Source of the DNA: Podarcis cretensis
Taxonomy: Eukaryota
Length of the DNA: 64,000 bases
Assembly (NCBI GenBank): GCA_951804945.1
Contig: OX638152.1
Span: 104,284,001-104,348,000 of the forward strand
Direction of reading: 5' to 3'
The position numbers were made by a program, and so were the translations under genes. Positions within the stretch are counted from its first letter, which is position 1, and every line of letters begins with the position of its first letter. Of this stretch, positions 2,151 to 61,481 are shown piece after piece. The notes under the pieces were generated by a model. That model searched no databases. It was not told where the DNA came from and worked only from the letters and a program-made list of their open reading frames with translations.

Positions 2151-2354
2151 GGATTCAAATTTCCAGTAATGGTCTGACTTGCTACACTGTGGGTATTAAT
2201 GGGTGTGCATACGTAAAGAGAATGAGGACGAGAAAATGAGCTCTGTTGAGCTCCAAGGCAATCATTCTCTGTGTGTGCAGTAGATTGTGCCCCAAATGCA
2301 CATGATTGTGAAACAGGATTCATACATCCAGTTACAGATAGGTAGCCGTGTTGG

Positions 2355-2948
2355 GCTCCATGATCACTGCAGATGGTGACAGTAGCCACGAAATTAAAAG
2401 ACGCCTGCTTCTTGGGAGAAGGGCAATGACAGGCCTAGACAGCATCTTGAGAAGTAGAGACATCACCTTGCCAACAAAGGTCCGTATAGTTAAAGCTATG
2501 GTTTTCCCAGTAGTGATGTATGGAAGTGAGAGCTGGACCATAAAGAAGGCTGATCGCCGAAGAATTGATGCTTTTGAATTATGGTGCTGGAGGAGACTCT
2601 TGAGAGTCCCATGGACTGCAAGAAGATCAAACCTCTCCATTCTGAAGGAAATCAGCCCTGAGTGCTCACTGGAAGGACAGATTGTGAAGCTGAGGCTCCA
2701 GTACTTTGGCCACCTCATGAGAAGAGAAGACTCCCTGGAGAAGACCCTGATGCTGGGAAAGATGGAGGGCACAAGGAGAAGGGGACGACAGAGGACGAGA
2801 TGGTTGGACAGTGTTTTCGAGGTTACCAGCATGAGTCTGACCAAGCTGCGGGGGGCAGTGGAGGACAGGAGTGCCTGGCGTTCTCTGGTCCATGGGGTCA
2901 CGAAGAGTCGGACACGACTAAACGACTAAACAACAACAACAACAACAA
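2355..2948 (+). mobile_element. BovB (RTE clade) LINE, 5'-truncated; ORF C-terminus open to stop at 2927-2929
   Basis: Translation GSMITADGDSSHEIKRRLLLGR...YGSESWTIKKADRRRIDAFELWCWRRLLRVPW...VHGVTKSRTRLND is the BovB C-terminus; (CAA)n tail; 11-bp TSD AGCCGTGTTGG (2344-2354, 2949-2959). Confidence 0.96.
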
Positions 2949-3031
2949 AGCCGTGTTGGTCTGCCATAGTCAAAACAAAATAAAAAAATTCCTTCCAGTA
3001 GCACCTTAAAGACCAACTAAGTTAGTTCTAG

Positions 3032-3069
3032 GTATGAGCTTTCGTGTGCATGCACACTTCTTCAGATAC
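3032..3069 (-). ncRNA. Minimal type I hammerhead ribozyme motif (PLE pLTR, inverted arm)
   Basis: Reverse complement GTAT-CTGAAGA-AGTGTGCATGCACAC-GAAA-GCTC-ATAC: conserved CUGANGA/GAAA core, helix II hairpin, helix I GUAU/AUAC. Confidence 0.85.
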
Positions 3070-3405
3070 ACTGAAACAGAAGTCACCAGACCCTTCTATA
3101 TAGTGAGAAGGTGGGGAGGGGTATTACTCAGAAGGGTGGTGGGAATGGGTGATTGGCAGATAGCTGTGATGAGCCTGTTGACGACTCTTAACGACTGCAA
3201 TAGGTCTTACAGGAAAAAGCAAGGGGTGAGAAGGTGAAAAATGGCTTTGTCATGTATAATGAGATAAGAATCCAATGTCTTTGTTCAGACCAGGTCTCTC
3301 CATGGTTTTAAGTTTGGTAATAAGTTGCAATTCAGCAGCTTCTCTTTCCAGTCTATTTCTGAAATTCCTTTGTAATAGAACAGCTACTTTGAGATCTTGT
3401 ATAGA

Positions 3406-4095
3406 CTGATACCCAGAGAGAACTTGCTGCAAGACAGACCCAAAAAAGAAAATAACAGAACACCTCTAGTCATCACATACAGCTCCCAAGTTAAAACAGT
3501 ACAACGCATCATCAGAGATCTACAACCTCTCCTGGACAGTGACAGTTCGCTTTCTCAAGCTCTGGGAGGAAGACCTTTCATTGCCTACAGACAGCCACCC
3601 AATCTTAAACAACTCCTAACCCACAATAATACTACTACCAGACTTAACACGGACACTGGCACCAGAGCCTGCAATAAACCCAGATGCCAACTTTGCTGCC
3701 ACATACACCCGGACAACACCATTACTGGCCCCAACAACATCACACATACCATCTCGGGACTATTTAATTGCTCATCGTCTAACATTGTGTATGCCATCAA
3801 ATGCCAACAGTGTCCTTCAGCTCTCTATATTGGACAAACAGGCCAAACCTTACGCCAAAGGATAAACGGACATAAATCTGACATCAGGAATCACAAGACA
3901 GAGAAACCAGTAGGAGAACACTTCAATCTCCCAGGACATTCTATACAAGATCTCAAAGTAGCTGTTCTATTACAAAGGAATTTCAGAAATAGACTGGAAA
4001 GAGCTGCTGCTGAATTGCAACTTATTACCAAACTTAAAACCATGGAGAGACCTGGTCTTAACAAAGACATTGGATTCTTATCTCATTATACATGA
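3406..4095 (+). pseudogene. Penelope-like ORF C-terminal part: RT thumb/linker, Cys-rich linker and GIY-YIG endonuclease (5'-truncated)
   Basis: Uninterrupted frame containing CNKPRCQLC, NIVYAIKCQQCPSALYIGQTGQTLRQRINGHKSDI, KPVGEHF and ELQLITKLKT..GLN; the Cys-rich linker is typical of Neptune-type PLEs; the 5' end is the inversion junction, not a true start. Confidence 0.9.
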
Positions 4096-4275
4096 CAAAG
4101 CCATTTTTCACCTTCTCACCCCTTGCTTTTTCCTGTAAGACCTATTGCAGTCGTTAAGAGTCGTCAACAGGCTCATCACAGCTATCTGCCAATCACCCAT
4201 TCCCACCACCCTTCTGAGTAATACCCCTCCCCACCTTCTCACTATATAGAAGGGTCTGGTGACTTCTGTTTCAGT

Positions 4276-4313
4276 GTATCTGAAGAAGTGTGCATGCACA
4301 CGAAAGCTCATAC
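4276..4313 (+). ncRNA. Minimal type I hammerhead ribozyme motif (PLE pLTR)
   Basis: GTAT CTGAAGA AGTGTGCATGCACAC GAAA GCTC ATAC. Confidence 0.85.
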
Positions 4314-4488
4314 CTAGAACTAACTTAGTTGGTCTTTAAGGTGCTACTGGAAGGATTTTTTTTATTTTGTTAGGATTCATACATGTGTGTATAATTCAGA
4401 AACCTGCTTAAATTTGGTCATAAGGCTTCAGACACAGCACACGGCCTCAGTGGTGTAGCGTAGGTTGCCAGCGTTGGGGGCAAGGGAA

Positions 4489-4532
4489 GTATTGTGTAAC
4501 CTCATGGACTGTATTGTATAACCTCATGGACT
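4489..4532. repeat. 22-bp tandem duplication
   Basis: GTATTGTGTAACCTCATGGACT / GTATTGTATAACCTCATGGACT. Confidence 0.85.
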
Positions 4533-4863
4533 GTTAGCACTCCCTGACTCCCTTCTTCCAGTCCAGTATTGAACCCCTTACCTCCCAAGCACATGTGTGG
4601 TATTTTAAGAAAATACTGATGTCATTAAAGTAAAATGCATTTAAGGACATTTAAAATGTCCTTCCACACAGCCCTACCTCATTGCTGCCCTTCCTCTGCA
4701 CTACCCCAGGAACTGCTGTTGGGAGGGTGGGGGCACAGTGTTGCCCCACTGTGCTCCTGAAAAACCACTTAGGGCATAGATGTATTTGTAGACAATGCAA
4801 TAAATAGATAAATAGACTAGTTGTGCTTCCTTGCTGTGCTTCCTTGCTATTTTCATTAGCATA

Positions 4864-5104
4864 CAGTGGTACCTTGAGTTACAAACGCCTCAGGTTACAA
4901 ACACTTCAGGTTACAAACTCCGCTAACCTGGAAGAGTTACCTTAAGTTGAGAACTTTGCCCCAGGATGAGAATGGAAATCGTGTGCCGGCGGCGCAGCGG
5001 CAGCAAGAGGCCCCATTAGCGAAAGCACACCTCTAGTTAAGAATAGTTTCAGGTTAAGAACAGACCTCCGGAATGAATTAAGTTCGTAACTAGAGGTACT
5101 ACTG
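4864..5104 (+). mobile_element. Tc1/mariner (Tigger/pogo-like) MITE
   Basis: TIRs CAGTGGTACCT...AGGTACTACTG flanked by TA; same family as 19664 and 54498. Confidence 0.85.
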
Positions 5105-5459
5105 TACTAGGAAACCTAAGTTGTGCAATTATAGTTGACAGGGATGTCTTGCACTTCCCCAAAGATCAGACTTTCTGAAACAGGGAACATGCCAGGAAAA
5201 TGCACTGGAAAGTATGTGATAGCCCTACCTTTGACATGTCACCTCTCTGAAAACAAATCAGAATGAATGCTCATTAAAAAGCCAATGCCCTTTAATCTCC
5301 CTGCAAACAAATTAAGATGGATGCTCAATAAACAGGTTGTCTGGAGGCCTATAATTCTGGTGCCAGCTCCACCTTTTACTTGAGGTAAAAAAAAATGAAG
5401 GCTTTACTTTTACGCCCACTTGCACAGGAGTAAACATCAAAACCAATGGGACTTAGACC

Positions 5460-5900
5460 TCATCAAAACGAAGATGATCAAGGGTCTGGAAACCAAGCCT
5501 TGTGAGGAATGTTTGAAGGAGCTGGGTATGTTTAGCCTGAATAAGAAGAGACTGAGAGGAGATATGATAGCCATCTTCAAATATCTCAAGGGCCGTCACA
5601 TGGAGGAAGGAGCAAGCTTGTTTTCTCCTGCTCTGGAGGGCAGGACCAGAACCAATGGATTCAAGTTACAAGAAAGGAGATTCTGACTAAATATCAGGAA
5701 GAACTTTATAGCAGTAAAAGCCTTTTGACAGTGGAACGGTTTCCCTCTGGAAGTTGTGGACTCTCCTTCCTTGGAGGTTTTCAAGCAGAGGTTGGATGGC
5801 TGTCAGTCATGGATACTTCATCTGAGATACCTGCATTGCAGGGGTTGGACTAGAGGACTCTCAGGGTCTCTTCCAACTCTACCATTCTATGATTCTATGA
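5460..5900 (+). mobile_element. CR1 LINE 3' end
   Basis: TKMIKGLE..[13 protein letters not shown].[17 protein letters not shown]...[14 protein letters not shown]; (ATTCTATG)n tail at about 5884-5900. Confidence 0.92.
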
Positions 5901-8900
5901 CAATTTTGCCTGTGCTTCAGCTATTGATATTCCCCCTCCCTCCACCCTGTTCAGGATGCGACAAGGCGTGACTGTGAGAAGGATGGTTCTGCTGGCAGCA
6001 TGTCAGCTCCTTCCTACAACCCTGGACCAGCTGCTTCCCAAGGTTTCATCGCATGAAGACAGACAACCCAGGGTGGTGGATGCAGGTTGAGGGGTGGGGT
6101 TAAGCAGATATGCTTTTAAAAAGTAGAATAAAGGGGCATGGTTGTACTACTTTTCGGTCTAATTTCTAGGGTGTTTACCCAATGGTCTGTCTGCCAAGAG
6201 AGCACAGTTCTTGGCTGGTTTTTGCAAAAGAGGTCTGAGCAGCCACTTTTCAGTTGCCAGCAGGCTTGACTATTCAGGTGGCAGGGGGCATAGATGTGGC
6301 CACAAAGAGAAGCAGAAGTAGCTCCCTGACTAGTTTCTGGCAAGTAGATGTAAGCATTCCAGTCTGGGAGCATCATTTCAGCTGCCAAGCTGTCCTCCCC
6401 ACAGAGGAGAAAACCTAAACGACACTTCATATTCCCAGTTAAAGAACCACTACCCCATACAAGAGGGAGAGCAGAACAGCTCCCCTGACCGGCTTTGGGA
6501 CTTCCGTGCATACAACCCTTCCCCTTTCACTGTCCCCACAGCTGGGAGGTGATGGCAAGAAGTCAGAGTATCAAGGCAGGCACCCCATGGTGCATTCAGC
6601 AAGCCAGCATCCCTTCTCACTCCTCGCTGAGGACCGCAAGTGGTGCAGAGCAGGCTCCGGGCACGCAGGTGGTGAGAGAAGGAGTTCAAGGGGCCAGCAG
6701 GGCATGGATGGATGCGCTCCCACCGCTTCCATGGGCAAGCAAGCAAGCCGGCTGTGCTGCTCACAGGCTCTGGGTGGCGTCTCCCCTCACTCAGCGGCCA
6801 GATCTGCTCCAGGAGAGCCAGTGAAGAGATGGCTCTGGCAGTTTGGGGGTGGGGACACCTCCAGGATGTCTTCCCCTCCCAGATAAGAAGTTTGGGATGA
6901 ATACGTTGGCCTAATACCATTTCATTTACACCGAGTTAAAAGATATAGCTATAGTTGTTCTGTCCTCCATCCATCCATCCATCATCGAGCTGTTCAGTAC
7001 TATTTCCTTTTTTTCAATAGGAACTCTAAAAAAGTATTCTTCTGGGACACACAATATTGTAATACAGACCTTCCAAGTAAGTGTGCATACCTGTTTCGTT
7101 ATGTTTTAAAAAGTTTTGTTAAAACTTCTGTTGTGTTTTGTGACTTTGGGATTATAGAGTGATCATTATCCTGGCACCAAACCTGCAAATCCACAACAGA
7201 GATGACTCGAAGGAAGGTGCTTGTTACTGCTACTCAGATGGAAACAATATGAATTAATAGTCTTCCTGCTGACAGTTGGCATAAAATGATTTACAATGTT
7301 CAGCATGGAGCCGAATTTTCATCATTTAGGTGTACTACTTCCTTATAGATTATAATTTAGCATAATGATGTGATTATCTGTCTAAAGTACAAAAGGGCTT
7401 GTTGTCAGCTGAGGATGTAAAGTACCTATTTTCAGTGCCTGGAAGCAATCCTTTGAGTTTATTTCCCCCAGTTCTAGCATGCTGGTTCAACACAGGCAAA
7501 CCCAGTGCTTGTGACTAATCTTATTTTCCTTTGTTCAAGAAAAACTTCAATCCTGATTGGTTCCTAATCACACTGCCCTTTAACACAGCCTGCATTGTAT
7601 GTCAGAGTAAAGGGAGCTGCTAAAAAAACAAGGAGGAAATGTTGTGATAAATGTAAAGCAGTTATAGCCTCTGTCACACATTTATTCAGGTTTTGTTTTA
7701 AAGTTTTGTTCAGATTACTACCTGGAGTGTGCCTAGTCAAGCACTGACAATATTATGAATGTTATTTTCTAGCAATTGAATGAGTGAAATTCTTGGTTTT
7801 CTGGGATAAATTGGATATATTCACCTAGAAAATATAAGGAAGATGAAGTGTTTATGTGTGTGTCTTTTCCATCCCTGTAATGGGACAGCCTCCGGGCTCC
7901 TAAAAAGCCACTCTGGAAAGTCAACAGGTTCTACAGAACACTATATCATGTGGCTTGTGAGGTGGCAGCTGGTGTGAGAGAGACATCCATAGAAACTGGA
8001 TTCCCTCTTGTTGCAAAATGCAAGTGCATTCTTCTCACAAGCGGCTTTGAGGATCCAATATGTTGAAAACAGTTGAGCTGAATATGAATAAAATACAAAT
8101 GAAACAATTGAGTTCAATATGTGCAAGATTCTGGGCCAAATTAGTTGTGACGTTACATTTATGAATGCATTGAATGAGTCTATTTTGGAAGGGGTGGTGG
8201 TGGATATGTGCAGGATTTAACCATTTCGCTTTATGCCAAAAGTTATTCCCCTGAAACTGCTGTTCACCCTGGGAGGAAGGGAGCCAATCTCCTTTCTCAT
8301 GCCTATAATGAAAGATGTCAGGGGGGCATTCCTTATGAAGGATGGTGACTTTGGTAAAAACTTCATAAAACCTTGGATAATTGCATAATTAATTACTACT
8401 TTTTATAATAACTTAAGGGTAATTAGGTATGTTTTTTTATGATCCCCCTCCCCCGCAGTTGTAGCACCTCATTAAAAATGCTTTGAAGATACTTGATACC
8501 TCCTTGAAAATATCTCTCATACAGAAGAGAAAATAACCAATGGGATGCAAAGCGTTATTGGAGAGAGGAATGGTGGGTGGACTTGGAGAGGGGGGCAAAT
8601 AGGCCGGGCTTTGGTGGACAGAACTTTTGGTATGAACAGTTCAAGAATACAAGCCGACAATGCTGTCTACCCACCCTCACCTTTTTGTAGATGTGGTGAA
8701 CATGATGGGTGTTAAAATAGTTTACATATCTTTTCTAAAATCCTAAATACCATGTGATGGTAATGGATTAGATTTGAAAGCCAGCATTTACACTGTAGAT
8801 TTTAAATTCTAAAGTGGAGTGCTAGGTTATTTGTTAGCTGCTCTTTTCTGTGGCATATATAAAAGCACTTACCTTGTTTGTGTTTAATTACTGGCACATA

Positions 8901-9725
8901 GGACTGTTCCACTTTGCACATGGCAACAGACATGGATTTGGTACCAGGTGTACACTGGAGTGGCTTCTACAGTCATTCTTGCTTTTCTTATGCATGTCCC
9001 GGTAAAACATGCAAACTTCCAAATGGGTCTCATTGGTGTGTTATACATGTAAGTGTATTCTTAAATCTTAACTGATCCATCAATAGCAATGTGTGTGTGA
9101 AGTAGCCCTCAGTTCCTTCACACAACTTTCGTCTTATTTGCTTTTTACACCTCTTATCAGCCATGTAGTTGTCTTTGCCTGAGTCCGTTCTCAAAATGAG
9201 ATCTAGTGTGTCCCAAACAGAGAGGGGCTATCATTTCCCAAAACTTGATTATACTGACATTTGTCAATGCAACTTAAAATGATTCTTATTCCTCTTCTGC
9301 CTTCCTTGGGGCTGCTATGAATGGAATGCAAAAGCTAGCAAGCCTGGGCCAGAGGGCACATAACTATCAGCTCTTGAAGTGGGCCTGAAAATACTTTGGA
9401 CCATTTGTTTGTGTTAATATGACAGGAAGGCTTTACTAAAATACATTAAGTAAATATTAGTATATAATAAGATTGTAAGAATGTCAACACACTTCAGTTT
9501 CTGTGGCTGCCCAAAGATGGCCACACACATTCTAACACGACAACAGAACAGCAGGCAGGCGGCTTGGGCAGGCAGAGGAGGCCCAGGCAAGTGGTGCAGG
9601 GGATGGCCAGTCCAGTTGGGTCTCAGAGAAACAGCCACCTCATGCCAACGCTGCCATTTCAGTCTCAGGCCAAGGAGGAAAAGTGGTAGCAGCTCTGGAC
9701 GGCTGCTCTGAGGAGCTCCCCCAGC

Positions 9726-9771
9726 ATGTCCTGCCTGCTCCTCTTTCTTGGGCTGCTCTTCGGCCAAGCAG
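9726..9771 (+). CDS. Candidate signal-peptide coding exon (MSCLLLFLGLLFGQA, phase-1 donor) of an unidentified secreted or membrane protein gene
   Basis: ATG with A at -3; in-frame upstream stop (9687-9689); hydrophobic 15 aa; strong donor CAG|GTGAGT at 9771/9772; possible acceptor catttcag at 9662; no downstream exon recognised. Confidence 0.35.
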
Positions 9772-9809
9772 GTGAGTGAGGAGGAAGGAACTGGAGGTGG
9801 ATGCAGCTG

Positions 9810-9811
9810 GG

Positions 9812-9843
<32 letters not shown>
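9810..9843. repeat. (GGCA)n microsatellite
   Basis: Visible tandem. Confidence 0.9.
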
Positions 9844-9844
<1 letters not shown>

Positions 9845-9992
9845 TTTTCAAGCCTTCCTACGGTCCCTCTGCCACTCTGCTCTCCTCCACGCTGCTGCCA
9901 CAGCCATGGCTGCTGCTTTGGGAAGGAGAGAAAAAGTTGACATTTTGAAACACAGACTTCTTTCTCCCCTCCTCACTGCAATAGCCTCCCAA

Positions 9993-9997
<5 letters not shown>

Positions 9998-10051
<54 letters not shown>
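9998..10051. repeat. (CT)n microsatellite
   Basis: Visible tandem. Confidence 0.95.
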
Positions 10052-10054
<3 letters not shown>

Positions 10055-11144
10055 CTTGGCATGTGTGTGAGTGCAAAGAGATGGTGAAGGGGATAAGGAG
10101 TTTCTCTCCTTCATTCCCCTCTCCCCTGTCAGTGGTGTAACTGGAGGTGGAGTTTGGGGTTGGCAAGGTGCAAAGGGAGGCGTGATTTGGGGTCAGCTCT
10201 GATGGGAGGGGGGTTTGGGGTGCTGTAAAGGGAGAGGGAGGAGTTTTCATCAGGTGTAAAGGGAGGGGGCTGCAAAGGTATGGCAGTTTGGCGGGGGTGA
10301 TGCCCCTGGCAATGCAACTGAGTGATAGTCCACAAACTGACCCCTCACGTCACAGGTAACTTGGTTCCAGTACAGAGAGAAATTGCCTTGTATCCCGGTG
10401 AAATACTTGAGCCTAGGCTCTGAGCACATGATCTGGTTCCAGGCCATCTTATAGCAAAGCCTGGCTCAGTTTTACTATTGAGAACTGGGTGTCTGCATAC
10501 CTGGTGATCAAGATCCAGGCTCTAGGTCCATCAGTTTATATTCATGAAGAACAGTATGCAGCATGTGCTCTCAACATACTTCTTTGTGTACTGCAATGCA
10601 GGTGTTGTATTCTTTTAAAAACAAGGTGCTGTGTCTCCTTTTCTTCTCTCTGTAATTTACAAGGCAAGTTAAACTCTGGGCCTGTTTAATGGACCTAATA
10701 GCAGACTTTCAAAGCCAACAACTGAATCAACTACAAAGCCATGCATTTGCAGACAAGCTTGATGATTTACAAAATTTAATAAGCTTCTTCCTTACGGCTT
10801 TCTCCCCAAAGATGCTGTTCCTGTAACTGCTGCCAAGAATGCTGTCAGAGGTGCACAGACTATTGCTATAATGAAAATTTTGTGGAAAAATGCATAAACA
10901 ATCTCTAGTACTTGCTAATTCATTAACAGTGACTATATTCTGCACTATGTAATGCATAGAATTGCCTACAGACACCTTATAGATAGGAGCAAGAACCCAA
11001 GGATTGTCTGACTATCCACTTTTGATAAATGCACTTACTGTTCAACTATAGAATTGTGCACAGAACAGTAGGCAAAGAGAGAAAGAAACATTTTCAAAGA
11101 GGAAGAAAAGTGAAATAGATAGCAAAAAAGAGTAAAATGGGAAA

Positions 11145-11295
11145 CAAAATAAAAAAATTCCTTCCAGTAGCACCTTAAAGACCAACTAAGTTAGTTCTAG
11201 GTATGAGCTTTCGTGTGCATGCACACTTCTTCAGATACCATTTTTTTATTTTGTTTTGACTATGGCAGACCAACACGGCTACCTATCTATAACTG
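11145..11295. mobile_element. Mini Penelope-like insertion (inverted arm with hammerhead, plus terminal tail)
   Basis: Near-identical to the pLTR end of 2328-4371; 13-bp TSD GTAAAATGGGAAA (11132-11144, 11296-11308). Confidence 0.9.
11201..11238 (-). ncRNA. Minimal hammerhead ribozyme motif
   Basis: Identical to 3032-3069. Confidence 0.82.
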
Positions 11296-12122
11296 GTAAA
11301 ATGGGAAAAACACTGTAGGGAGTTGGGAAGCCACCACCAACAGCAACATAGCATCCCGCCATTTAGTGCTAACTATAGCATATTGGCCTGTCTCGCTGCT
11401 GTTGCTGCTGTTGCTGCATGACATTGGGCCTGATCCAGACTGGCTTGGAGCTGGTGCAGAGATTGGACCCAATTGCCCTGCCCCCCCTCACTTGCTGCTG
11501 CTTCAGGCGCCATGAGCAGCTGGGCTGTGGCTTCTGTGGTGGCTAAACCACACTTCACCTCAGGCCTTTTTGAACATCTGCAACATTCATTGTGGTCTTG
11601 CAAATATATCACAAGTTATGATGGAGCAGTGCAGATTTAACAAACTTGTAGTTAGGCTATCATGAGATCGGTACTCTCCTGGCTCACCTTAATCAACGTG
11701 AGGCATTACTGCTCCAGCGCAGATGTTCACAGAGGTGAAAGTTCATCAGATTTCCATTTAGCCAGAGTTGCTCTCAGCTTCAAATCCTGGTTAAGCGAAT
11801 TTCTCCATTCTGTTTTGCAGCATTTCTTCAAGTCTAGATTCAAAATACACATTTTGTAGAATGTGTTTATTCAGTATAGGATGTTGTTCCTGTTTAGACT
11901 AAATCTGTTTAGAGCTGGGGAATTGATAATAGATTCTGACTGAATGACACTTCCTGATCTGATAAATTTCCCCATTCTAAATTATTAAGCTGTCTTCTGC
12001 TTCCTGTTTCCTATCTTCCATTGTTCTTTTCCCTTTGTCTCCTACTTTGTCTCCTCCCCTGCTTGGTTTTGAGATTTTCCAGTTGTATTATTCACATAGT
12101 CACAACTCACTGTCTCTCCTGC

Positions 12123-12665
12123 CATAAGAACATAATAAGAGGTCTGCTGGATCAGACCAACAGCCCACCTAATCCAGCCCCCTGTTCTCAAAGTGGCTAA
12201 CCAGGTGCGCCAGGGAGCCTGCAGGCAGCCGAGGAGACCTATGGTCCTCTTCCTCCGCAGTTCAGAGACTGGTCTTCAGAGGCATGCCGCTTATGATCCC
12301 GGAGGCCATATATAATCTCTGTCACGACTAGTAGTGGTTTTATCCTTCACACATTTGTCCAGATCCCTTTTAAAGCCACTCAAGGTGATGGCCACCACAT
12401 CATCTTGTGGAAGTGAATTCCATAGTTCAAATATGTCCCATGTGACCAAGTACTTTGTTTGTCTGTCCTGAACTTCTATGGGACAGGAAGCAAATCATCT
12501 TTCTACTCAATTTCTCCAAATCATGCATAATTATGTACATCTGTATCATTTCCCCATCCATTATTTATTTAACCCCCCACTCATGTTGTAACACAACGGG
12601 GAAAAGCTCCAGCCTTCTGATCATTTGCTTTGCCCTTCTGTGCACTTTTTTCAGCTGTACAATGT
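12123..12665 (-). mobile_element. CR1-type LINE 3' end, old
   Basis: CATAAGAACATAA tail complement followed by ctgctggatcagacca..., then degraded ORF2 complement. Confidence 0.7.
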
Positions 12666-31727: not shown

Positions 31728-32023
31728 TTTTATGTACTGAAGTTCTCACCCTGGGCCAGCAGGGGGATACTGTAGATAGTTATGCAAATGAAGGATGGAA
31801 AGTGACGTTTAGTGATTGGATAGTTTTGTATGCAAATGAAGGATCGAAAAGTGACGTTCAGTGATTGGATAGTTTTAGAATGTTGCAACAGTTACAATTG
31901 TTCTGTAGCTCTATATAAGCAGGCTGACTGAGCTCCTCAGTTCAGTTCTGTTCCAGCTTAAAAAATAAAGAGCTGCTTGGAGAAATTGCTGTGTCGTCTG
32001 CTATGTCAACCCACAACTTAACA
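31728..32023 (+). repeat. 5' LTR
   Basis: Ends ..AACA; the initial TG is mutated to TT; TATATAA 31912-31918; AATAAA 31964-31969; 48-bp internal duplication; 8 differences from the 3' LTR by manual count. Confidence 0.95.
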
Positions 32024-36432: not shown

Positions 36433-36728
36433 TGTTATGTACTGAAGTTCTCACCCTGGGCCAGCAGGGGGATACTGTAGATAGTTATGCAAATGAAGGA
36501 TCAAAAGTGACGTTTAGTGATTGGATAGTTTTGTATGCAAATGAAGGATCGAAAAGTGACGTTCAGTGATTGGATAGTTTTAGAATGTTGCAACAGTTAC
36601 AATTGTTCTGTAGCTCTATATAAGCAGGCTGACTGAGCTCCTCAGTTCAGTTCTGTTCCAGGTTACAAAATAAAGAGCTGCTTGGAGATATCACTGTGTC
36701 GTCTGCTATGTCAACCCACAACTTAACA
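36433..36728 (+). repeat. 3' LTR
   Basis: TGTTA...TAACA, 296 bp. Confidence 0.96.
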
Positions 36729-39800: not shown

Positions 39801-40044
39801 TGTTATGTAGTGAAGTTTCACCCTGGGCCAGCAGGGGGATACTGTAGATAGTTTTCACTCAGGTCCACATCAGTTATTTTAGGCGGGAAACTCTGGGTTG
39901 TTGTTGCTACAATGTTGACAACCGGCTGCCTATAAAAGCAGGCCGGCTGAGCTGTTTGCAGTCAGTTCTATTCCAGCGTACAAAATAAAGAGCTGCTTTG
40001 GAGAAATCGCTGTGTCGTCTGCTATGTCAACCCACAACTTAACA
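39801..40044 (+). mobile_element. Solo LTR related to the Mag-type element
   Basis: TGTTA...TAACA; 5-bp TSD ATAAG (39796-39800, 40045-40049); shares both ends with the 36433 LTR. Confidence 0.95.
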
Positions 40045-49558: not shown

Positions 49559-49564
49559 ATTGAT

Positions 49565-50877: not shown

Positions 50878-51205
50878 GGGGACGCGAGTGGAGCTGTGGG
50901 GTAAACCACAGAGCCTAGAGCTTGCTGATCAGAGGGACTGAGCTCCTGTTGCTCAGTCCCTGCTCCTGCCCACCTAGCAGTTTGAAAGCATGTCAAAAGT
51001 GCAAGTAGATAAATAGGTACCACTCTGGCAGAAAGGTAAACAGCATTTCCGTGCGCTGCTCTGGCTCACCTGAAGCGGCTTAGTCATGCTGGCCACATGA
51101 CCTGGAAGCTGTATGCTGGCTCCCTCGGCCAATAAAGCAAGATGAGCGCCATAACCCCAGAGTCGGCCACGACTGGTCCTAATGGTCGGGGGTCCCTTTA
51201 CCTTT
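50878..51205 (+). mobile_element. Sauria SINE (second subfamily, internal deletion)
   Basis: gggacgcg head; gtgcaagtagataaataggtacc core; ACCTTT tail. Confidence 0.88.
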
Positions 51206-54200
51206 AAAGCATTTATAGAACCAACATTCTTTCTTGCAAGCACTGTGATTGGACACCGTTAGTTGAGATCCCAGGCCTGGACTGGAAGATGGGCCTCTCA
51301 ATTGGCCAACCCCAGATCCCTCCTCCCACCCTGGCATCTCCCTTATATGAGAGGGATACCTGTAACTGTTGTTGTTTTTAATCTGTTGTCTCCAAATAGC
51401 TTGGAGGTCCATTTCTGTCAGTATATGCCCAGCTAGCCTTAGTATTTGGGATATGGACAAAGTGGTTGCACAGCCCTTCTAGATGATAGAGGTGGTTTTA
51501 TGGTAGCTCACACAGTTTGGGCACACCAGGCGCTGTGCTGTCGGGGATGCCACAACAATGCTGTACAATGGAGTACAAGAGATGGGGAGGCGTCAATTTT
51601 TAGTGTTGCACAGGGTGCTGAAATTGGAGAGCCCAAAGTCTGCCTCTGCCAGATGGGCCTTTACCCTGATTCAGTAGGGCTCTTCTTATGACTACCAAGT
51701 TAATAAAAAGATAACCAGTGTGGCACCAGAAAATTGAGGAGAGACAAAATGCATTTATTGGTGTGTGAGCTATAGCCCATGTTAGATTTCTGAAAGAGAA
51801 ATAACAGCCTATTTCTCATTAACACTCCCATCCTAAACATATTTCCCCCCCTGAAGTCCTTTTGCCTTTGACAAAGCAAATTTAGGTGGTATAATTTTCT
51901 GTGCAGAAAGTATTAACCAACTGAATTGAAATTACAGCAAGGAAAGCAAACAAGGAGAAGAGCTTTCAAGCAAGCTACAGTCCCCACACAAAACATTTTC
52001 TTGATGTGCAAATTAGGCAGAGAGAACACTGGTGTATTTCTTTAGAAAACACAATTATCTGAACCAGGTGGAACCATGAACACAGGCTCTAAGAGCAAAC
52101 TGAAACAGACATAGGATGGCCAGTTATGAATTGCCGATAAAGGAGGACTTGCATCAGCAAAAAAAGACCAAAGCGACGCCAACGCATAAAATTTGCATGT
52201 GAGGATTCATATTTTTAGGTGTAAATTAAGGAATAATTGGTATAATTCAAAGAGAAATACAATATATCTCCCCATATATTGATGAGATACCAATTTCATA
52301 ATGCACTAGTGAACAATTTCTGCATTCTTTGGAGCTATTAGGATCTCCAGACCAAAGGCTGGAAGTATTTTGTCACTTAAACCGACCCCTCAGGCTGCGT
52401 AATAAAGCTGGGACCATCCAGCAATGATGGGTCACACCCACGGAGCCCTTACACCCAGACACAGTATTTTATACAAATGTGCACATATTACATGCATATT
52501 ACATATGAAAAGAAGAAAATAAAAAAGGTGTATCATTAAATTATTAACTTTTCCAGGTTCTTTTTTTTATGCAGCTTGCAAATGTTCTTTCTTATGGGTG
52601 AAACTGGGCAACCATATTACCATAAACTGATTTACTATTTTGCAGGATCTAAATCCTTGAAAACAGGATTTGGCCCATGGGTCATATCTAGTTTGCCATC
52701 TCCACCACAATACAGGAAAAATACAGGAAAAATGATCAGCCGAAGAGAAAACAGTGATGGTCTGATCTTGTTAGTTCTGAACTATCACAGTGCCAATCAA
52801 GGAAGGCTGCATCAAATTAATGTCACCAAAGGGTGAGAATAAATTAATTACCTTACTCATAGCAGTTTGGTATTAATTCATAGAACTTTCTGTCTTCCTA
52901 TCATCATCTAATTGCCAAATGGCAGTAACCTTTCTAAAAATTAGGTTCCCATTAAATCCTTTTAAGTAAAGCTAATTTGGCGCTCTCTCCTAGGTTTGTG
53001 CTCTTAGCTTCTGAATGTTTGCAGAGCATATTTGGATACTCTTAACAGCTCCAGAGGTACATTGTACTCATTCTCAGTGAGGAAAATGTTATAATTTGAA
53101 TGTGCCCCAAGGAACAATGGTTTGTTATGATGAGTTATTTGAAAAATGCAGTAAAGATAATACCAGTGCAATGTACATCTTAGCTCACTGGGGGTGGGTA
53201 TCCCCTCACATTTCTAAGAGTGAATTTTCCATCTTTACAAATAAATCTAAAATAGTGTTCTGAAGTGGAAATCCTGTAGGTAAATTTGAAACTATTTTAA
53301 TTTCCTTGCTGTTTCCTAAATGCAGACCTACGTATTGTGTAGACTGAAGTGGCAACAGTCTGGACTGTATCACTTCAGGTGTGCAGGTGTAGCATTTTTT
53401 CATATGCTCAATATCCTCTTTTCCCACCACACTCTTCCTCCCCTCAGACCTTCTTGTCTCCCATTATAAAAAGCTTGGGACTTGATTGCATGCTTTTGGC
53501 AAGATAACCTCTAATTTGGCCCATACTGAGGGGGCCTTAGGCAAGTCACTATCTCTCAGCCTCAGCTTTCCACTTCTAATGTAGGATATGCTGGCCTACT
53601 GTTGGGGCTTGCTTTTTTAATCATTACTGCAGGGATATTAGTGAGGAGCATTAAGTTAGGAACATCCGTAATAACAATTTATTGCCATTGTGATAGGCTA
53701 GGTCCTTACCAAAGGTTGACCTCCCAGTTGTGTGCTTTCATCGAAGAAGAAGCAAAGAGGGTAAAATGGACAGATTAAGGTCACCAGCCTGTCACTTGTC
53801 AAAATTTCAGCTGAAGTAACCAAGATATGGAGACAATAAAATGGAGAAGCTGGTGACAAAGTATAATGCCAAGCAGCAGGGCTCTGTCTGTAGCTACTCA
53901 CAAATGAATAGGTGTCCAGTTCACTAATGCATGCCAGTGTACAATTAAATCTCAACAGGCATTCATCAGATAAAAACCACCACCTTCTCTGTTTTGTGTT
54001 AGAGTTTCCCCCAACAGATTGCACATCTACATCAGAGCCCAAAGCCACCTTTAAATTAACCTAGTCCCATGTCACACAGACAAACCAAAATAATTCCTTC
54101 AAGCAGTGAAGAAAACTCAGTGTTGATGTAAAATATAGGCTCTCTCTCTTGGGAACTCATTATCTTTTAAGGGTGCTGCCTTGGAAATCAGAGTTTTGTA

Positions 54201-54497
54201 GGTGAGTAGCCTCACAAACCTAAGCCACTTCTGCAGCATCAATAGAAAGGTTCCATGCAGGTCTGTCTTTCAAGGATATCATCAAAATTCCTCAGTATTA
54301 ATATATGTTTTGAAAAAGTATGAAGCAAAATCTGCATAGGAAAGAACCTAGGTCATTTGGGCACTGGAAAATCAAAACAGCAGGTATTCAAATGCCTCAG
54401 AAGCCCAACATTTGGGCCCTAATTTTAGTGGATAGCAACTCTCCCTAACTCCCTGGCTTTAAGATAATGTGATGATTCTTCAGGTTTGCAATCTATA

Positions 54498-54686
54498 CAG
54501 TGGTACCTTGGGTTAAGAACTTAATTCATTCTGATGGTCCGTTCTTAACCTGAGGTACCACATTAGCTAATTGCCACCACGCCACAATTTCTGTTCTCAT
54601 CCTGAAGCATAGTTCTTAACCTGAGGTACTATTTCTGGGTTAGCGAAGTCTGTAAGTTGAAGCGTCTGTAACCCGTGGTACCACTG
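54498..54686 (-). mobile_element. Tc1/mariner MITE
   Basis: CAGTGGTACC...GGTACCACTG; TA TSD; opposite orientation to 19664. Confidence 0.87.
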
Positions 54687-55679
54687 TAATTCTTACCAAC
54701 TTTCTCATTTTACACCAGCCCTATGAATGAACCTACAAAAGCTACCAACTTACAAAAACAAAATTAGCCTATTTATGGGCAGAACAAAACTGTTGATGCA
54801 TAATTGTTTCATTTGATTCTTTGGGATTAAATCTTGCACAGCTGTGAGTAGACACCACCAGCCCAATCACTGCCATGCCAAGCACCAGAGGGAAGGAGGC
54901 AGAGCAGGCAACCTGCCCCGATTGTGGCAGCCTGTGTAAAAAAGAGTCTTCCTTGCTGGCATACAATTCCTCGTCACCTATGACTGCCAGGTGAATGCCC
55001 AGTGGAAGGCTGTTCTAAACAACAAACAATTAAATGTGCCTAAGAACTACCTGTACATGCTGAATCTATGTCTAAAAAGCAATGCAGAGACAGAGGACAA
55101 AGAAATGTGATTCTGCTGCTTGTGCTGAAAACACTGTGCAGTTATTATGAAGCAATTCTAACAAATTTAAAATACACTTTGATATTTGAGTGTTATTTGT
55201 AATAGTCCTACAAACTTTGTGCCTCTGTTTTGCATTTTCCAAAGTAATGCCTAAAACCAACTTCCATGCTAGGCTGGAATGGTGAACATTTCTTTCAAAT
55301 GGACCAGTAGAATTTTAACCTTTCTTTCATGACATAACTAGACATTAAAAAGGAAAGCAGAAAAATGACATATTCTTAAGGATGGACAGATCCATCTATT
55401 TCTGCTCCAGAATAGTTTTTCCTCCTTAAGTCTGTTCTGTTTCATTTCTCCATCAATCTGCAATTTTAAAAAGCATGAAAACTTGCATTTTATGTGCAGT
55501 TGACTAGGTTTTTAAATCAGAACCATACTGCAAAATTTGGAGAAGTGTGAAAACTGAAGGATAGCTGCATTCTAATCTGCTATTTATGTGGATCAGGAAT
55601 GAATCACTCACCTTTCTGCACATATTTAGACATTGGTTCAGTTGGGATAAGTGTTAAGGGGTATTAAGCCATGGGAAAA

Positions 55680-56044
55680 GGTACGCGGGTGGCTCTGTGG
55701 TCTAAACCACAGAACCTAGGGCTTGCTGATCAGAAGGTTGGCGGTTGGAAACCCTGTGACAGGGTGAACTCCCATTGCTCGGTCCCTGCTCCTGCCAACC
55801 TAGCAGTTCAAAAGCACCTCAAAGTGCAAGTAAATAAATAGGTACCGCTCTGGCGGGAAGGTAAACAGCATTTCTGTGTGCTGCTCTGGTTTGCCAGAAG
55901 CGGCTTAGTCATGCTGGCCACATGACCCAGAAGCTGTCTGCGGACAAACGCCGGCTCCCTCGGCCAGTAAAGCGAGATGCACGCCGCAACCCCAGTGTCG
56001 TCCACAACTGGACTTAACGGTCAGGGGTCCTTTACCTTTACCTT
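55680..56044 (+). mobile_element. Sauria SINE, full length (second subfamily)
   Basis: tRNA-derived head; (ACCTTT)n tail; TSD TAAGCCATGG(G/A)AAAA at 55665-55679 and 56045-56059. Confidence 0.92.
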
Positions 56045-58052
56045 TAAGCCATGGAAAAAATGGGTTTTGTGCTTAAGGGATGAGAGAGGTGGTTTGTTGT
56101 AAGTGTTCAAGTAGAATGTTCCAGCACAAATAAATCAGATTGGACATTTCTAGAGGTGGGCACAAGAAACCCACATGCACAAATGGAAACTGCAGAATGC
56201 AGGCCATGAAGGGGCACATAAGAGCCCATTGAATCTGGGTACGTAGCTTTACATCAGTGTTTAGAAGGTGGACAATATGGTCCTTTCCTATCACTGCTCT
56301 CAACGAATGGCCATTGACTTCAGTTTTACTGATATCAAGCCTCACTTTCATTTTATATGGAGTTGCAAGCTGGGTATTATCCATATGCCCTTCAGATGCT
56401 GCTCATGCAACACCTCTGTTGTATAACTCCTTGTTTTTACTCTTAGCTGTAGGGGGATAGGTTCTTCATTGTTTCCTCAGTTTTGCTCTTGAGTTACTCT
56501 CTCATGCTCTTCTGGGAATCTGAGCCACAAAGCTCCAGCGTGGGACATTGGGCAAAGTTATTTAGCAGGAGCCTTTATGGACAGCTAAGGAAAAAAGGTC
56601 AAGCTGAAAGAGTGGGGGTCACAAGCAGGGATATAAAGAGAGGTAAGGGTGGGAAGATAGCATGAGATGTCCCAAGAAAAGTAATCATGTGAAACATTAT
56701 GGGCAAAAGTCACATTTTGTCAGAAATGAATGTAAGAAACAGGGCTAAAATTACTCTCAGATTGAAACCAGAGAATACTTGTGTCCTAGCTCACACACAA
56801 GGCTGACCCTGAGTCCCTACACGAAGCATGCTTATATCAGTCAGCACTTTAGGGCTGTGAGCTGGTCAGCTCTTGCTGACTCAGAGTGATGTCCCAAACA
56901 CCCTCACTTTTATATTGTTCAAAATCTAATTCAATATTCAGATGCTACCGGTTGCTGCTACTTCCAAAGTAATCTCCCTGCTGTAATAAATGGCTGAGCT
57001 TCAAGGGATTGAAATCCTGATCAGAATTCAGCAGCTCAAGCCCCATCTGTTGTTGCAAGTTGCATTAATAAATGGAGGAAAATATCAGGCAATTTTTGCA
57101 AGATGCCTGGAACAAAATACATTAGTCCCACACTATAAACTGTATACATAAGAAACAGGTGGTGTCCTAATGGAACTGTCTATATACACTTCCTCCCCTA
57201 CCTCTAACTTTTGTGAAAAGCACACTGACAGCTTGGCTGTGATTTCTTTGATATAGCTTTAAAGTGGCACGTTGTTTAAATGCACATTAGCATGGGAACA
57301 CACAATGGTAAAACTGATTTGGTTTGGAGGTGTGTTTTTTTCCTTGTCGCTGACGGTGCAGAACCTGCTCCTGCTCATCATTCTTATTTAATCTGGCCCA
57401 GTGATGAAACAGACTGTTGGGGCAAGCTTGGCAGTTGAAGGATCCAGATGCTAAGCTCCAGGATTAATTTCTCTAGCAGGGGCATCTGGGAATCTGCTTC
57501 TCTCCCCTGGCTTGGATGGCAGACTGGATTAACCCCTAGCTATCCAAAAAGGCTCATTTCTCTGTCAAGTTAGGAGCTCCAGCTAAACGGTCAGGTAAAG
57601 GCTGCCAGACTGACATTTTCTAAATGGAAGAACTTATATTTAACTTGGATGGTTTTAATTTTCCCAGGCTTGGGAGGTCAGCTGCTGCAGAAGAATCATC
57701 TGCTTCTGCTTTTCTTTTTTGGCACCAGGTGAATGGTGTGACACAAGAAGTTTGTTAACAGCAAAACAAGACCCATAATGTCTGAAGGAGGAAAAAAATG
57801 CTGTTAGCTGCATCTGCCTATCTATCTATATATTCCTAGTGATATTTTGAATTATAAAAGCAGAGATGTGAGTATGTATAGCATTTTTATAAATGTGTGA
57901 GAGGAAGATCACAAAACTAAGAAACCACATCCATAGTGCATACTTGTCTTTCTGAAAAGACTGTATAGGGTGACCATGTTATTTTTAAACATTTGTATAT
58001 TTCTCTGCCCATTGTTTTCTGAATCTGTTTGGTAAGTTTCTTCAAATAAACA

Positions 58053-58310
58053 AACATTTATTTATATCCCTCCTTTCTCCCAGAATTTGGACTCAAGGCA
58101 GGCCACAAAAATTAAAACAGCTAGCTGAAACATATAAAATATAATAGTTAAAATAATTAAACTATAGGAGAATTAAAATGTTGTCAAAACATCTATTAAA
58201 ATGCAGAGAGTAAAAACAGCACAGAGCTATTCAAAGCCCTTTCCTTAAAAGCAGTCACTTCCTGAAAGCCTGCAGAAATGAAACAGTTTTGACCTGACCA
58301 TGGAAGGACA
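58053..58310 (-). mobile_element. L2 3' end
   Basis: tttatttatatccctcctttctcc...ctcaaggcagg start; A-rich UTR complement; aaagcctg...aacagttttgacctg. Confidence 0.65.
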
Positions 58311-58383
58311 ACAACAAAAAAGGCACTTATGAGGTGTTCAGAAAGCTACTTCTTTCTTCCTCTAACCCTTTAGATGTCTGAAG

Positions 58384-58592
58384 TTGCTTGAAGCAGTTCT
58401 GTGGCTGCATGACAAAAAAAGAGAAATCCCTTTAAAAATGCTTCGAGGAAGTGACTGTACATCATAACATGCAGTCCCTTCCTGGGGAACTATACAGGAA
58501 AAAAATGGCTGCCCTGTCAGGTACAGTCGCATCCTAGAAGCATTTTTAAATGGATTTTTTTAAGGGTGTAGTCACAGAGCTGCTCCAAGCAA
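58384..58592. mobile_element. Long imperfect inverted repeat, probably a MITE
   Basis: ttgcttgaagcagttctgtggctgca..aaatccctttaaaaatgcttcgaggaagtgactgtac pairs with gtacagtcgcatcctagaagcatttttaaatggattt..tgtagtcacagagctgctccaagcaa. Confidence 0.65.
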
Positions 58593-59488
58593 TCTAAAAC
58601 AAAGGCAAAAGGAGCGAAGAGGCAGCCCTCATATCACCTCCTAAATACAGTATGGATTCATGCACAGTTTGGTCTATTGATTATGTGGCTTAATCCTCAT
58701 ATCAACAATTTGGTTCTATGTATGGGCCTGAAGGGAGCAAAATGTGGAGCAAACCATTATCCTCCCCAGCCCTTCTACCTGCTGCCCCTGATAGTCGAGG
58801 GAAGGAGCGGCTAAGAGTTGGGAGTGATTTCTTTACTCCCTGTCTTCTCCATGACTCTTCAGTCCAGTCAGCTGTGGGGTATTAAAAAGAAAGGGCATGC
58901 ACATTATTAAAGAGCCTGGGCTCAACTTTTTGCTCCTGGAGGTGCCCCTTTGATCCCTGGGCCACTGTAGATGGCTGTTTCCCAATATTTGGTGAAAGAG
59001 TATCGTGGGTGGTGGGTGCTGGCTGCATTGGGCCAAACCAGTGCATTGTGCCAGAGTTTCTGAGGAGAAACCTATAAATACACACTCCAAGGCTCAAACC
59101 CCATGAGGACAGGATTTGGAGCCTGAAGGCTGCCTGAGGATGGGAGGGATGGCTAGGACTGTGAGTAAACATGCAAAGGAGTGCATTGCGTAGATCTGAG
59201 ATTAGAAGAGATTGCCAGTTGTCTTTTAGGTATTTTTCCAAATGCTGCTTTGTGCAAATGTTTGCATGGCACTCATAGGTATTCATAATTTCAGTAGCAC
59301 TAAAATTCAGGATCTCCCAGCGAAACATGAAAGGGAGCAGTATGTTCAGGGCTACTTCACGTAGCACATTATGTGCTGTTCACCATTCGCTTGCACACCC
59401 TTTAAAAGGTGATTAGACAAAGCAGGGTTTGAGACCCAATGCTTTTTTCTGTTGCTAATCTCCACAACTTCAACATATACAGAGGTAG

Positions 59489-59850
59489 TGTAGCACCCTG
59501 CTTGTGGTTAACGCTTAGCTGGAATGAAATATTCAACGCAGCAATAGAGAAATTAAAATAGTAATTTATTTGTCAGACAAATAAATATGAGGCACAGTGG
59601 TATATGGTTACCAAGCTCTGGCCTGGCCTCTTGCCATTCTGGCCAGCACTTATATTTCCTTAATCCAGCCCCCTTGCTCCTCCTGTGGCTGCCTCTGTCC
59701 AATCAGCCTGGTTGAAATTCCTATTGGCTGTTTGCTAGAGCCAATCACAAAAGATACACCCATTTCCTTCTTGCCCTTTTATGGAAATCAAAAAGCTATA
59801 TATTCTTCTATCTATAAATGACAAATAAGTAGTAATATATCTTACATGTG
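59489..59850 (-). mobile_element. Possible old solo LTR
   Basis: TTTATT, then CTTATAT, then three CCAAT/ATTGG boxes in LTR-like order; no TSD found. Confidence 0.35.
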
Positions 59851-61275
59851 TCTCAACAAGGAATCTTAATTACCAGCTCACCTCTTGCCCTCCTTGCCCT
59901 ATTGCCTTCCAAAACAGATAATTAATCTTGAATTTTTATCTTATGCATGTCAAGGATTGAGTTCACATCAACATTGAGAGATCTCCTTCATTTGAAGGTT
60001 TCTAAACAAAAGGCCTGACAACCATATATCAGGAGCGCTCGATTGGCGTCTTCTGTCTGGCAAGGGGGGGGGGCTGATGGCTGATGGCCCTTGTGATCTC
60101 TTCCAACTATATGAAATAAGAATCTAGCATTTCTTAAATCCTTTGCATAATTATATTTAAACTAATATATTTAATACATAAATAACCTTTTAAAAGGAAA
60201 AGAAATCTTAAAAGGATCTTAGTTTAAGAAACAAACAGCTTTAGAAAAGATTTCCCAGAAAATGTTCTGTTTCTGCCAGCTAGATGCTTTTTCACTGCTC
60301 TTGACCTTCTTAACCTTAGGAAGAAGATATGGCTCATTTTACTATTTATCCACCCTTAATTTGTAGGGTCAGTGTAACCTTGGCTGTCAGCCTGTAATTC
60401 CGTTTTTACGACTTTGAGAATTGTTTTCTGCTATAAATCAGGGGGGCCCCTTGTCTAGGAGTAAAACATCTTGTCAAGGTTTTTAGGCAACTGGTCTTCT
60501 AAGACTGGTCTTTTAAGATACAGGCCCTGATTAAACATATAAGCTTTAATAAAAATGCAGGCTTATGATTAGATGCCTCAGTAGACTTCCTCTGAACCTG
60601 GAGGTGTCAGAAACCAATCTCGGCTTGATGGCCACCTTTCCATCTCCAGCTTCGGAAGCTGTCTGCCTCTAAATATGATGAAAGGGGAGAGACAAAACAA
60701 CAGGAAAAGGCTGTTGGCCTCAATCCCTGCTTATGAGCTTCCTCCTGGATCTGACTGTCATTGTGGAAAGCAGGGTGCTGGGCAAGATGGACCCAGTTCA
60801 GTTACTCTTAGATGCACAGGAGCTCCTCCCACCATTTTTTAAAAACTGGTTGTTTATTTCTGGTTTCTTGACTCCAGCTTTTTACTAACATTCCTCATTG
60901 CTTCAAGAACCTATGCAAACTCCACTTTGCTGAAGTAGCATTTTTTAAATTTTGCATATGATAAAGTGGTTTTACCCCACTCTTCAACCAGAAAAGGCTT
61001 GCAGAGTAGCTTATAAAGATTAGTAAGAAGACAAATCATGTGAGGAAGTGAAGAAATTTTGGAACCTGATTTATAATGAATTAAAAAAAATATTTAAGTA
61101 CACATTCCTCAAAAAGCCAGAGGCTTTTCTATTAGGAATTATTGGAGAAGAAATTAAGAAAGAAGATAGAATTTTATTCCAATATTCGACAGCAGCAGCC
61201 AGAATATTAATCGCACAAAACTGGAAAAGCGCAAAATTACCAACGGTGAGGGATTGGCAGTCAAAACTATTTGAA

Positions 61276-61481
61276 ACAAAAAAAATTCCTTCCAGTAGCA
61301 CCTTAAAGGCCAACTAAGTTAGTTCTTGGTATGAGCTTTCGTGTGCATGTGTATCTGAAGAAGTGTGCATGCACACGAAAGCTCATACCAAGAACTAACT
61401 TAGTTGGTCTTTAAGGTGCTACTGGAAGGAATTTTTTTTGTTTTGACTATGGCAGACCAACACGGCTACCTATCTGTAACT
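61276..61481. mobile_element. Mini Penelope-like fold-back insertion with intact hammerhead
   Basis: 13-bp TSD AAAACTATTTGAA (61263-61275, 61482-61494); arm 61276-61349 is the reverse complement of about 61368-61441; ends in the terminal tail ...CACGGCTACCTATCTGTAACT. Confidence 0.92.
61351..61388 (+). ncRNA. Minimal hammerhead ribozyme motif
   Basis: GTATCTGAAGAAGTGTGCATGCACACGAAAGCTCATAC, identical to 4276-4313. Confidence 0.85.

Follow-up and report, generated by a model that had tools for sequence, protein, structure and literature searches.

Three inverted insertions of a putative Neptune-type Penelope-like family in Podarcis cretensis point to probable priming from both ends of a staggered cut

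How Penelope-like elements (PLEs) complete their insertion is the question addressed here, using a 64,000-nucleotide (nt) stretch of Podarcis cretensis contig OX638152.1 (the window) that holds three insertions of one hammerhead-bearing family, copies A, B and C. Each copy consists of two head-to-head arms, only one of which ends in a tail, and each lies between short target duplications. We propose that these copies probably arose by two-ended priming, in which both ends of a staggered cut prime reverse transcription at two dedicated sites 40–42 nt apart and the products are then joined. The architecture is already published as typical for these elements and this family is a further example of it. 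Within the partly accessible literature that our search covered, however, we found no paper that attributes two start sites to the two ends of a single cut or describes a stagger fixed for a family, nor one that joins both into a model of two-ended priming with a fixed stagger.

All three copies are 5'-truncated, and their parts are as follows, the target duplications being defined by comparison of the flanks.

2315..2327, plus strand: left 13-bp target duplication of copy A
2328..2354, minus strand: distal tail of copy A; 2344–2354 is one copy of the 11-bp duplication of a nested long interspersed nuclear element (LINE)
2355..2948, plus strand: LINE fragment nested in the tail of copy A, 5'-truncated, containing an open frame of 195 aa and ending 3' in (AAC)n
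2949..3405, minus strand: tailed arm of copy A, with proximal tail, pseudo-long terminal repeat (pLTR) and end of the open reading frame (ORF); 473 nt excluding the nested LINE
3032..3069, minus strand: minimal hammerhead motif in the tailed arm of copy A, by descriptor match
3403..4371, plus strand: tail-less arm of copy A, 969 nt; AGA (3403–3405) is common to both arms at the central junction
3403..4095, plus strand: ORF remnant of copy A, with C-x4-C-x2-C linker and GIY-YIG endonuclease
4243..4252, plus strand: TATA-like element with a putative promoter role, 31–33 nt upstream of position 4276
4276..4313, plus strand: minimal hammerhead motif in the tail-less arm of copy A, predicted cut after CUC
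4372..4384, plus strand: right 13-bp target duplication of copy A
11132..11144, plus strand: left 13-bp target duplication of copy B
11145..11239, minus strand: tail-less arm of copy B, 94 nt, extending to the first base of hammerhead stem I, with an extra G (element sense) at 11239
11240..11295, plus strand: tailed arm of copy B, 56 nt, from the arm alignment
11296..11308, plus strand: right 13-bp target duplication of copy B
61263..61275, plus strand: left 13-bp target duplication of copy C, within an open host frame
61276..61349, minus strand: tail-less arm of copy C, 74 nt, terminating within the loop of hammerhead stem II, from the arm alignment
61349..61481, plus strand: tailed arm of copy C, 133 nt, with the hammerhead motif at 61351–61388 and a 1-nt overlap with the other arm
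61482..61494, plus strand: right 13-bp target duplication of copy C

The tail measures 41 nt in A, 42 nt in B and 40 nt in C and is confined to one arm in 3/3 copies. It is carried by the shorter arm in A and B and by the longer arm in C (tail-less/tailed lengths 969/473, 94(+1)/56 and 74/133 nt). Both arms of A, and likewise of B, have sequence that is missing from the partner arm; in C the tail-less arm is nested within the tailed arm and starts in the palindromic loop of stem II. The stretch copied by both arms amounts to 432 nt in A, 14 nt in B and 74 nt in C. At the central junction the arms overlap by 3 nt in A and by 1 nt in C, and B has one extra base there. Subfamily variants agree between the two arms within each copy (3/3). 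An earlier interpretation made from the letters alone, hereafter the sequence-only reading, had described three copies sharing one architecture with a terminal tail of about 40 nt at one end, and both statements hold at these coordinates. The arms of copy A differ by 4 substitutions over 432 nt, at least three of them derived in the tail-less arm; these are too few, and we rejected them as evidence for two templates. An assembly artefact was likewise rejected, as each of the three loci has a duplication of its own and a junction unlike the others, and excising copy C plus one duplication leaves the host reading frame, which we take to be L1-like, open. BLAST, motif and tblastn scans found no fourth copy of the family in the window.

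Two-ended priming would account for this anatomy as follows. The reverse transcriptase–endonuclease (RT–EN) protein, probably as a dimer, would nick both strands about 13 nt apart and leave 13-nt 3' overhangs, as suggested by the target duplication together with complementary DNA (cDNA) running inward from both flanks. Each 3'-OH would prime reverse transcription, one at the tail end and the other about 41 nt upstream, the start sliding by 0–2 nt where the terminal A's of the primer pair with a U run in the RNA. Both cDNAs would extend toward the RNA 5' end, after which their ends would be joined via 0–3 nt of microhomology and host repair would fill in. The short copies would be templated by a capped RNA starting at the first base of the hammerhead, 31–33 nt below the TATA-like box, and long arms such as those of copy A would call for a read-through transcript on which priming took place in a downstream pLTR. 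For one and the same stretch to appear in both arms, the template would have to comprise two RNAs or two pLTRs within a single RNA, or else a single RNA would have been read twice with strand displacement. Two separate cDNAs are favoured by the unshared sequence in each arm of A and of B; neither of these copies can come directly from one folded-back cDNA, as the tail there sits on the shorter arm. The sequence-only reading had spoken of twin priming: two sites about 40 nt apart and the use of both strands fit the anatomy, whereas twin priming in the L1 sense does not fit, since both arms cover the same stretch (432 nt in A).

Each copy is flanked by a direct repeat with a maximal length of 13 bp (3/3), and the target sequences are unrelated. 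None of 1500 random pairs of 25-nt windows drawn from the same 64 kb shares 11 nt or more, and we therefore regard the repeats as real target duplications. If 13 bp is taken in each case, the tail-less arm ends in ..TTTTGTT (A), ..TTTTG (B) and ..TTTTGT (C) and the tail in ..CTGG (A), ..CTG (B) and ..CT (C), so that both element ends shift by 0–2 nt between copies; with the tail-less end fixed at GTT, the duplications become 13 (A), 10–11 (B) and 12 bp (C). An exact 13-bp duplication and a base-exact tail-less end cannot both hold. The ambiguous bases number 3 on the tail-less side and 1 on the tail side in B, 2 in C and 0 on the tail-less side in A, which leaves minimal duplications of 13 bp in A (12 if the element continues with A past its tail), 9 in B and 11 in C. 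These bases may be target bases that were paired with the RNA U run at priming, in which case 13 would be the true stagger; at the tail-less end, flank and element begin with 3 (B), 2 (C) and 0 (A) identical nt. The flank comparison thus bears out two claims of the sequence-only reading, a maximal duplication of 13 bp at unrelated targets in all three copies and an overlap of 2–4 nt with the element ends in B and C. It contradicts the claim that the inverted arm always stops at TTTTGTT, since B stops at G, C at GT and only A at GTT. The postulated fixed internal site survives to within 2 nt but not to the base, and the postulated fixed stagger agrees with all three maxima, being suggested by 3 copies only.

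What does the coincidence of three 13-bp maxima imply? A three-way tie has a probability of 0.09, 0.023 or 0.01 for a length standard deviation of 1, 2 or 3, and of 0.006 at 4, so that a narrow length distribution is favoured, its constancy resting on three copies. We lean towards duplication lengths in the family that peak at 13 ± 1, and consider a strictly constant 13-bp duplication across the family doubtful. A variable stagger (for instance 13, 10–11 and 12 with a fixed GTT end), in which coincidental microhomology added to shorter duplications produces 13 three times over, is a serious possibility that falls somewhat short of an even chance. It agrees with the lower bounds of 12–13, 9 and 11 in A, B and C, with a tie probability that reaches 0.09 under a narrow distribution, with rotifer Penelope copies reported to have 8, 9 or 10 bp or no duplication (PMC3846280), and with L1 duplications, which are reported to peak at 14–16 with spread. 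Yet all three maxima are exactly 13, and the tail ends themselves differ by 2 nt, which in any case calls for a sliding start. Searches for additional loci found the tail motif 0 times in metagenome and viral contigs and the hammerhead motif 0 times in metagenome and prokaryote genome contigs.

Many further copies are sampled by sequencing reads. Reads from 4/24 listed runs of related animals were aligned to the tailed arm of copy C, including two raw runs (X23 and X22; organisms D and H) that contributed 16788 and 21149 aligned reads; short reads carry no information on duplication length. Depth over the tail relative to the body is 0.42 (X23) and 0.43 (X22), a rough ratio as the tail-less end is blurred in reads, but close to one tailed arm in two. 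Depth falls by 72–73% between bins 61475–80 and 61481–86, marking a sharp tail end. Loose read ends, for which six rows per run were considered (731 further rows exist), occur behind 61481 in 1165/16788 and 1728/21149 reads, where they open with GG and are then heterogeneous. They also occur before 61351/61352, the first bases of hammerhead stem I, in 1505/16788 and 2035/21149 reads, where they are heterogeneous (agreement 0.34) and the consensus letter before 61351 is G in 4/4 runs, at a position where the element has T. Among the 15 joints listed (356 more exist), 12 connect opposite strands, and 11 of these 12 start at 61349–61352.

The hammerhead motif places these boundaries in context. 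Its layout comprises a stem I of 4 bp, CUGAAGA, a stem II of 5 bp, GAAA, a palindromic AGCU and a predicted cut after CUC, and it shows the palindromic helix III region described for PLE ribozymes (PMC4209133). A descriptor scan returned 4 matches, every one of them in an arm of copies A–C, against 0 in 10 shuffles; in Rfam the motif went undetected, both at the gathering score and by E-value. Five of the six arms run through the predicted cut (61384 in C), the sixth being too short to reach it, which argues that the hammerhead was uncleaved in these templates; hammerhead-cleaved RNA as their template was rejected on the same ground. Since RNA of pLTR plus tail folds no better than shuffled sequence (z 0.46, −0.79 and 0.84 in 3/3 stretches), we claim no conserved hairpin at the start sites.

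The 5' boundary may coincide with a transcription start. In copy B the tail-less arm ends exactly at the first base of the hammerhead with one added G, and in copy A the same base, position 4276, lies 31–33 nt below the TATA-like box. An extra 5' G is reported to mark cap copying in L1, and the RNA of the short copies likely had a capped start at the first hammerhead base, which would give the extra G. Immediately before the hammerhead, 4243–4278 holds, besides the TATA-like box, an initiator-like TCAGT as well as a pyrimidine tract plus AG, and a start site or a splice acceptor could each define the 5' pile-up. That the pile-up reflects splicing, or an RT stop at the ribozyme, rather than a capped start seems unlikely to us. 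The pyrimidine tract plus AG (4262–4274) would suit an acceptor, the intron of Drosophila Penelope is described as ending at the 5' side of helix I (PMC4209133) and the Drosophila Penelope promoter as TATA-less (PMC2377424). However, the heterogeneity of the loose letters speaks against a shared exon, an acceptor would place the boundary at 61350 or earlier rather than at the observed 61351, and a structural stop would be expected 3' of a stem.

Several features of the reads stand apart from these boundaries. Read depth climbs to more than twice its initial value within the first 50 nt of the pLTR (61349–61400), a rise to which an edge effect may contribute, and many arms genome-wide are probably shorter than about 130 nt. 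The loose-end consensus past the tail is GGAA(C/T)TAT in both raw runs (agreement 0.36) and a few hundred reads align onward through GGAAC, which suggests that the element continues beyond the tail as GGAA(C/T)TAT. The copy C duplication (61482–61489) begins AAAACTAT and equals this consensus at 6/8 positions; as a lead only, target–RNA pairing may assist priming at the tail end.

The family is, judging by its sequence, a Neptune-type PLE family with a minimal hammerhead motif. The remnant ORF (3403–4095) contains a GIY-YIG domain (PF01541) above the Pfam cut-off and matches the C-terminal part of the RT–EN protein P0002 at 98.7% identity over 230 aa; in P0002, PF00078 (RT) lies upstream of the endonuclease, and the RT itself is absent from the window. 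Via P0002, the family combines a C-terminal GIY-YIG with a PLE-type RT in one ORF, and its pLTR is in inverted orientation in 3/3 copies, both as in EN+ PLEs. The GIY-YIG domain, the identity to P0002 and the hammerhead motif together substantiate the earlier assignment to a hammerhead-bearing Penelope family. About 50 aa before the GIY motif lies the linker CNKPRCQLC, of the CX2-5CxxC type, which between RT and EN marks Neptune and is shared by Nematis (PMC8557442); we favour Neptune because Neptune and Poseidon are the vertebrate clades reported for PLEs. Named relatives come from Zootoca vivipara (80–87% identity) and in turtles (about 57–71%). In EN+ PLEs the tail falls within the first part of the ORF belonging to the next tandem copy; here it contains an ATG and an open 11-codon frame that has no convincing match among 164 proteins, and a search for a full-length ORF with the tail peptide at its start found none. 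Separately, the Zootoca vivipara gene models P0003–P0006, P0034 and P0035 join PF00619 to the endonuclease region (80–87% identity). PF00619 is presumably CARD, and an exonisation or an annotation artefact is possible.

Copy A has acquired changes of its own. Its tail is split by the nested 594-nt LINE fragment (2355–2948) with its own 11-bp duplication, and because both sit inside the Penelope tail, the family of this LINE was still active after copy A had inserted. We take the fragment to be Bov-B/RTE. Its look-alikes in a protein cluster atlas fall in RT-fragment and DUF6451 (15% of members) clusters, which lends that label weak support, and the 195-aa frame has no Pfam match. In the tail-less arm, a two-base change at 4004–4005 lengthens a GCT repeat and produces an Ala codon where P0002 and the other arm have Glu.

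Insertions of this form have been described repeatedly. The typical PLE layout is an adjacent inverted 5'-truncated copy with a tail often at one end only (PMC8557442), and inverted terminal repeats of variable size are reported as the common form in Drosophila virilis (PMC2377424). Canonical EN+ insertions (Penelope/Poseidon, Neptune and Nematis) share with ours the inverted 5'-truncated copy, a 30–40 bp tail at one end, a hammerhead pLTR and a short duplication (PMC8557442, PMC3846280), and rotifer Pen2a has this very layout with a 9-bp duplication, the rotifer copies of this layout having 8–10 bp and being ascribed to self-priming (PMC3846280). Unlike these, the present copies have 13 bp in 3/3, a tail of 40–42 nt and an anatomy that excludes a plain fold-back in 2/3; the accessible parts of the canonical papers explain the layout by self-priming or EN resolution (PMC8557442, PMC3846280). 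For Poseidon of Anolis carolinensis (PAc), in vitro work in 2024 with purified protein reported nicking and extension of both strands, two RT starts bracketing the tail, uncleaved hammerhead RNA as template, AT-rich targets and a predicted dimer (PMC11167929), so that our two start sites and the use of both strands were largely anticipated in print. The family studied here differs from the PAc clade in its zinc-finger-like linker. The spacing is similar, the distal start lying 97–103 nt below the hammerhead cut here and 85–92 nt below it in PAc (PMC11167929). As far as the accessible text of that paper goes, it gives no duplication length, stagger or account of inverted arms and leaves the steps after the first priming unvalidated (PMC11167929).

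L1 twin priming is similar in that each end of a staggered cut serves as a primer, the arms lie head to head, the joint shows microhomology, the duplications are discrete (12–18 bp) and the cap gives an extra G (PMC2912911, PMC11702581); head-to-head arms, a target duplication and junction microhomology are all found here. In L1, however, the second primer is reported to use variable internal sites and the arms to abut with 1–10 nt of overlap or gap (PMC11702581), whereas in the present copies that site varies by no more than 2 nt and sits about 41 nt from the first one, and the overlap of the arms takes up most of the shorter arm (432, 14 and 74 nt in A, B and C), exceeding the 1–10 nt of L1. 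The Penelope copies also have no poly(A) tail, unlike L1. The Chlamys PLEs of Chlamydomonas mutation lines resemble ours in their very short 5'-truncated new insertions (median 128 bp), but belong to a clade with N-terminal EN and microsatellite targets (PMC9977147).

Could a single priming event suffice? Palindromes found at inverted junctions led to the proposal that Penelope self-primes (PMC3846280): a single cDNA, or an antisense template, would fold back into a long palindrome, in which asymmetric central deletions would later shorten one arm. Copy C suits this well, with its nested tail-less arm starting in the palindromic stem II loop, as do near-perfect fold-back joints in the reads (61351–61351 and 61351–61352) and the subfamily variants shared by both arms in 3/3 copies. 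Copies A and B, in contrast, would each need a secondary deletion confined to the tailed arm (about 540 and 80 nt, respectively), B retains an intact 5' end plus the extra G beside its junction, and the fixing of the tail-less end within 2 nt, matching the in vitro start site, is left unexplained. We consequently judge self-priming to be improbable for these copies. Still less probable in our view is that EN resolves a tandem or circular DNA intermediate by cutting at both edges of the tail, in which case the ends would be cleavage sites in element DNA and not priming sites. Craig et al. ascribe the tail to EN-mediated resolution of an intermediate (PMC8557442), the Drosophila EN is cited as needing tail sequence for cleavage (PMC11167929), and contig joints link the tail end back to the pLTR start. 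Yet the RT starts of PAc in vitro coincide with genomic tail ends (PMC11167929), and the sliding of the tail-less end with A-rich primer ends is easier to explain via priming.

Two-ended priming nevertheless has to be weighed against a number of observations that tell against it. Copy C fits a fold-back equally well, copy A shows no primer–template pairing at its tail-less end, and the stagger is known from n = 3 as only three loci have both flanks. In vitro, PAc is reported to show no difference in start site between the strands (PMC11167929), which leaves the one-sided tail unexplained, and published Penelope copies include direct tandems and copies without duplication (PMC3846280). In the reads, the depth step expected at the tail-less end (61426–61445) is confounded by T-run indels and by a subfamily variant that clips reads at 61426 and 61438; the T at 61390 typical of A and B is rare (200/11212 and 286/14661), and the reads of organisms D and H mostly report other subfamilies. 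The joints at 61349 fall on the edge of the reference, and the 61363–61377 joint, where 14 letters fit both sides, may be a hairpin artefact. Finally, contig joints run from the tail end at 61481 to 61351, 61353 and 61387 (range 61351–61387), which suggests head-to-tail arrays of the ~133-nt pLTR unit, retrozyme-like in form; together with the published tandems and duplication-free copies, these joints show that insertion has other outcomes as well.

Two observations concern the window as a whole. Given the ~12,400-fold read depth obtained from 1.9 Gb in run X23, the presence of three copies within 64 kb looks dense, which may reflect local clustering or a higher copy number in the species of the window. 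An unrelated 294-nt repeat occurs at 31730–32023 and 36435–36728 with 98% identity and as a third partial copy at 39818–40044, with spacings of 4705 and ~3300 nt.

In conclusion, if both cut ends were primed at dedicated sites with a fixed stagger, the inverted pLTR and the one-sided tail would follow from one reaction. Whether two-ended priming is the default route of the family, with a dimeric RT–EN, a fixed 13-nt 3' stagger, sites 41 nt apart and a short capped RNA, we regard as a tentative proposal with the odds rather against it; if true, a single reaction would explain the inverted pLTRs, the one-sided tail and the swarm of ~150–200 bp copies. The abundance of such tiny copies makes the prediction testable in one genome assembly, and the family would then offer a simple model system for second-strand priming, which is unsolved for most non-LTR elements.

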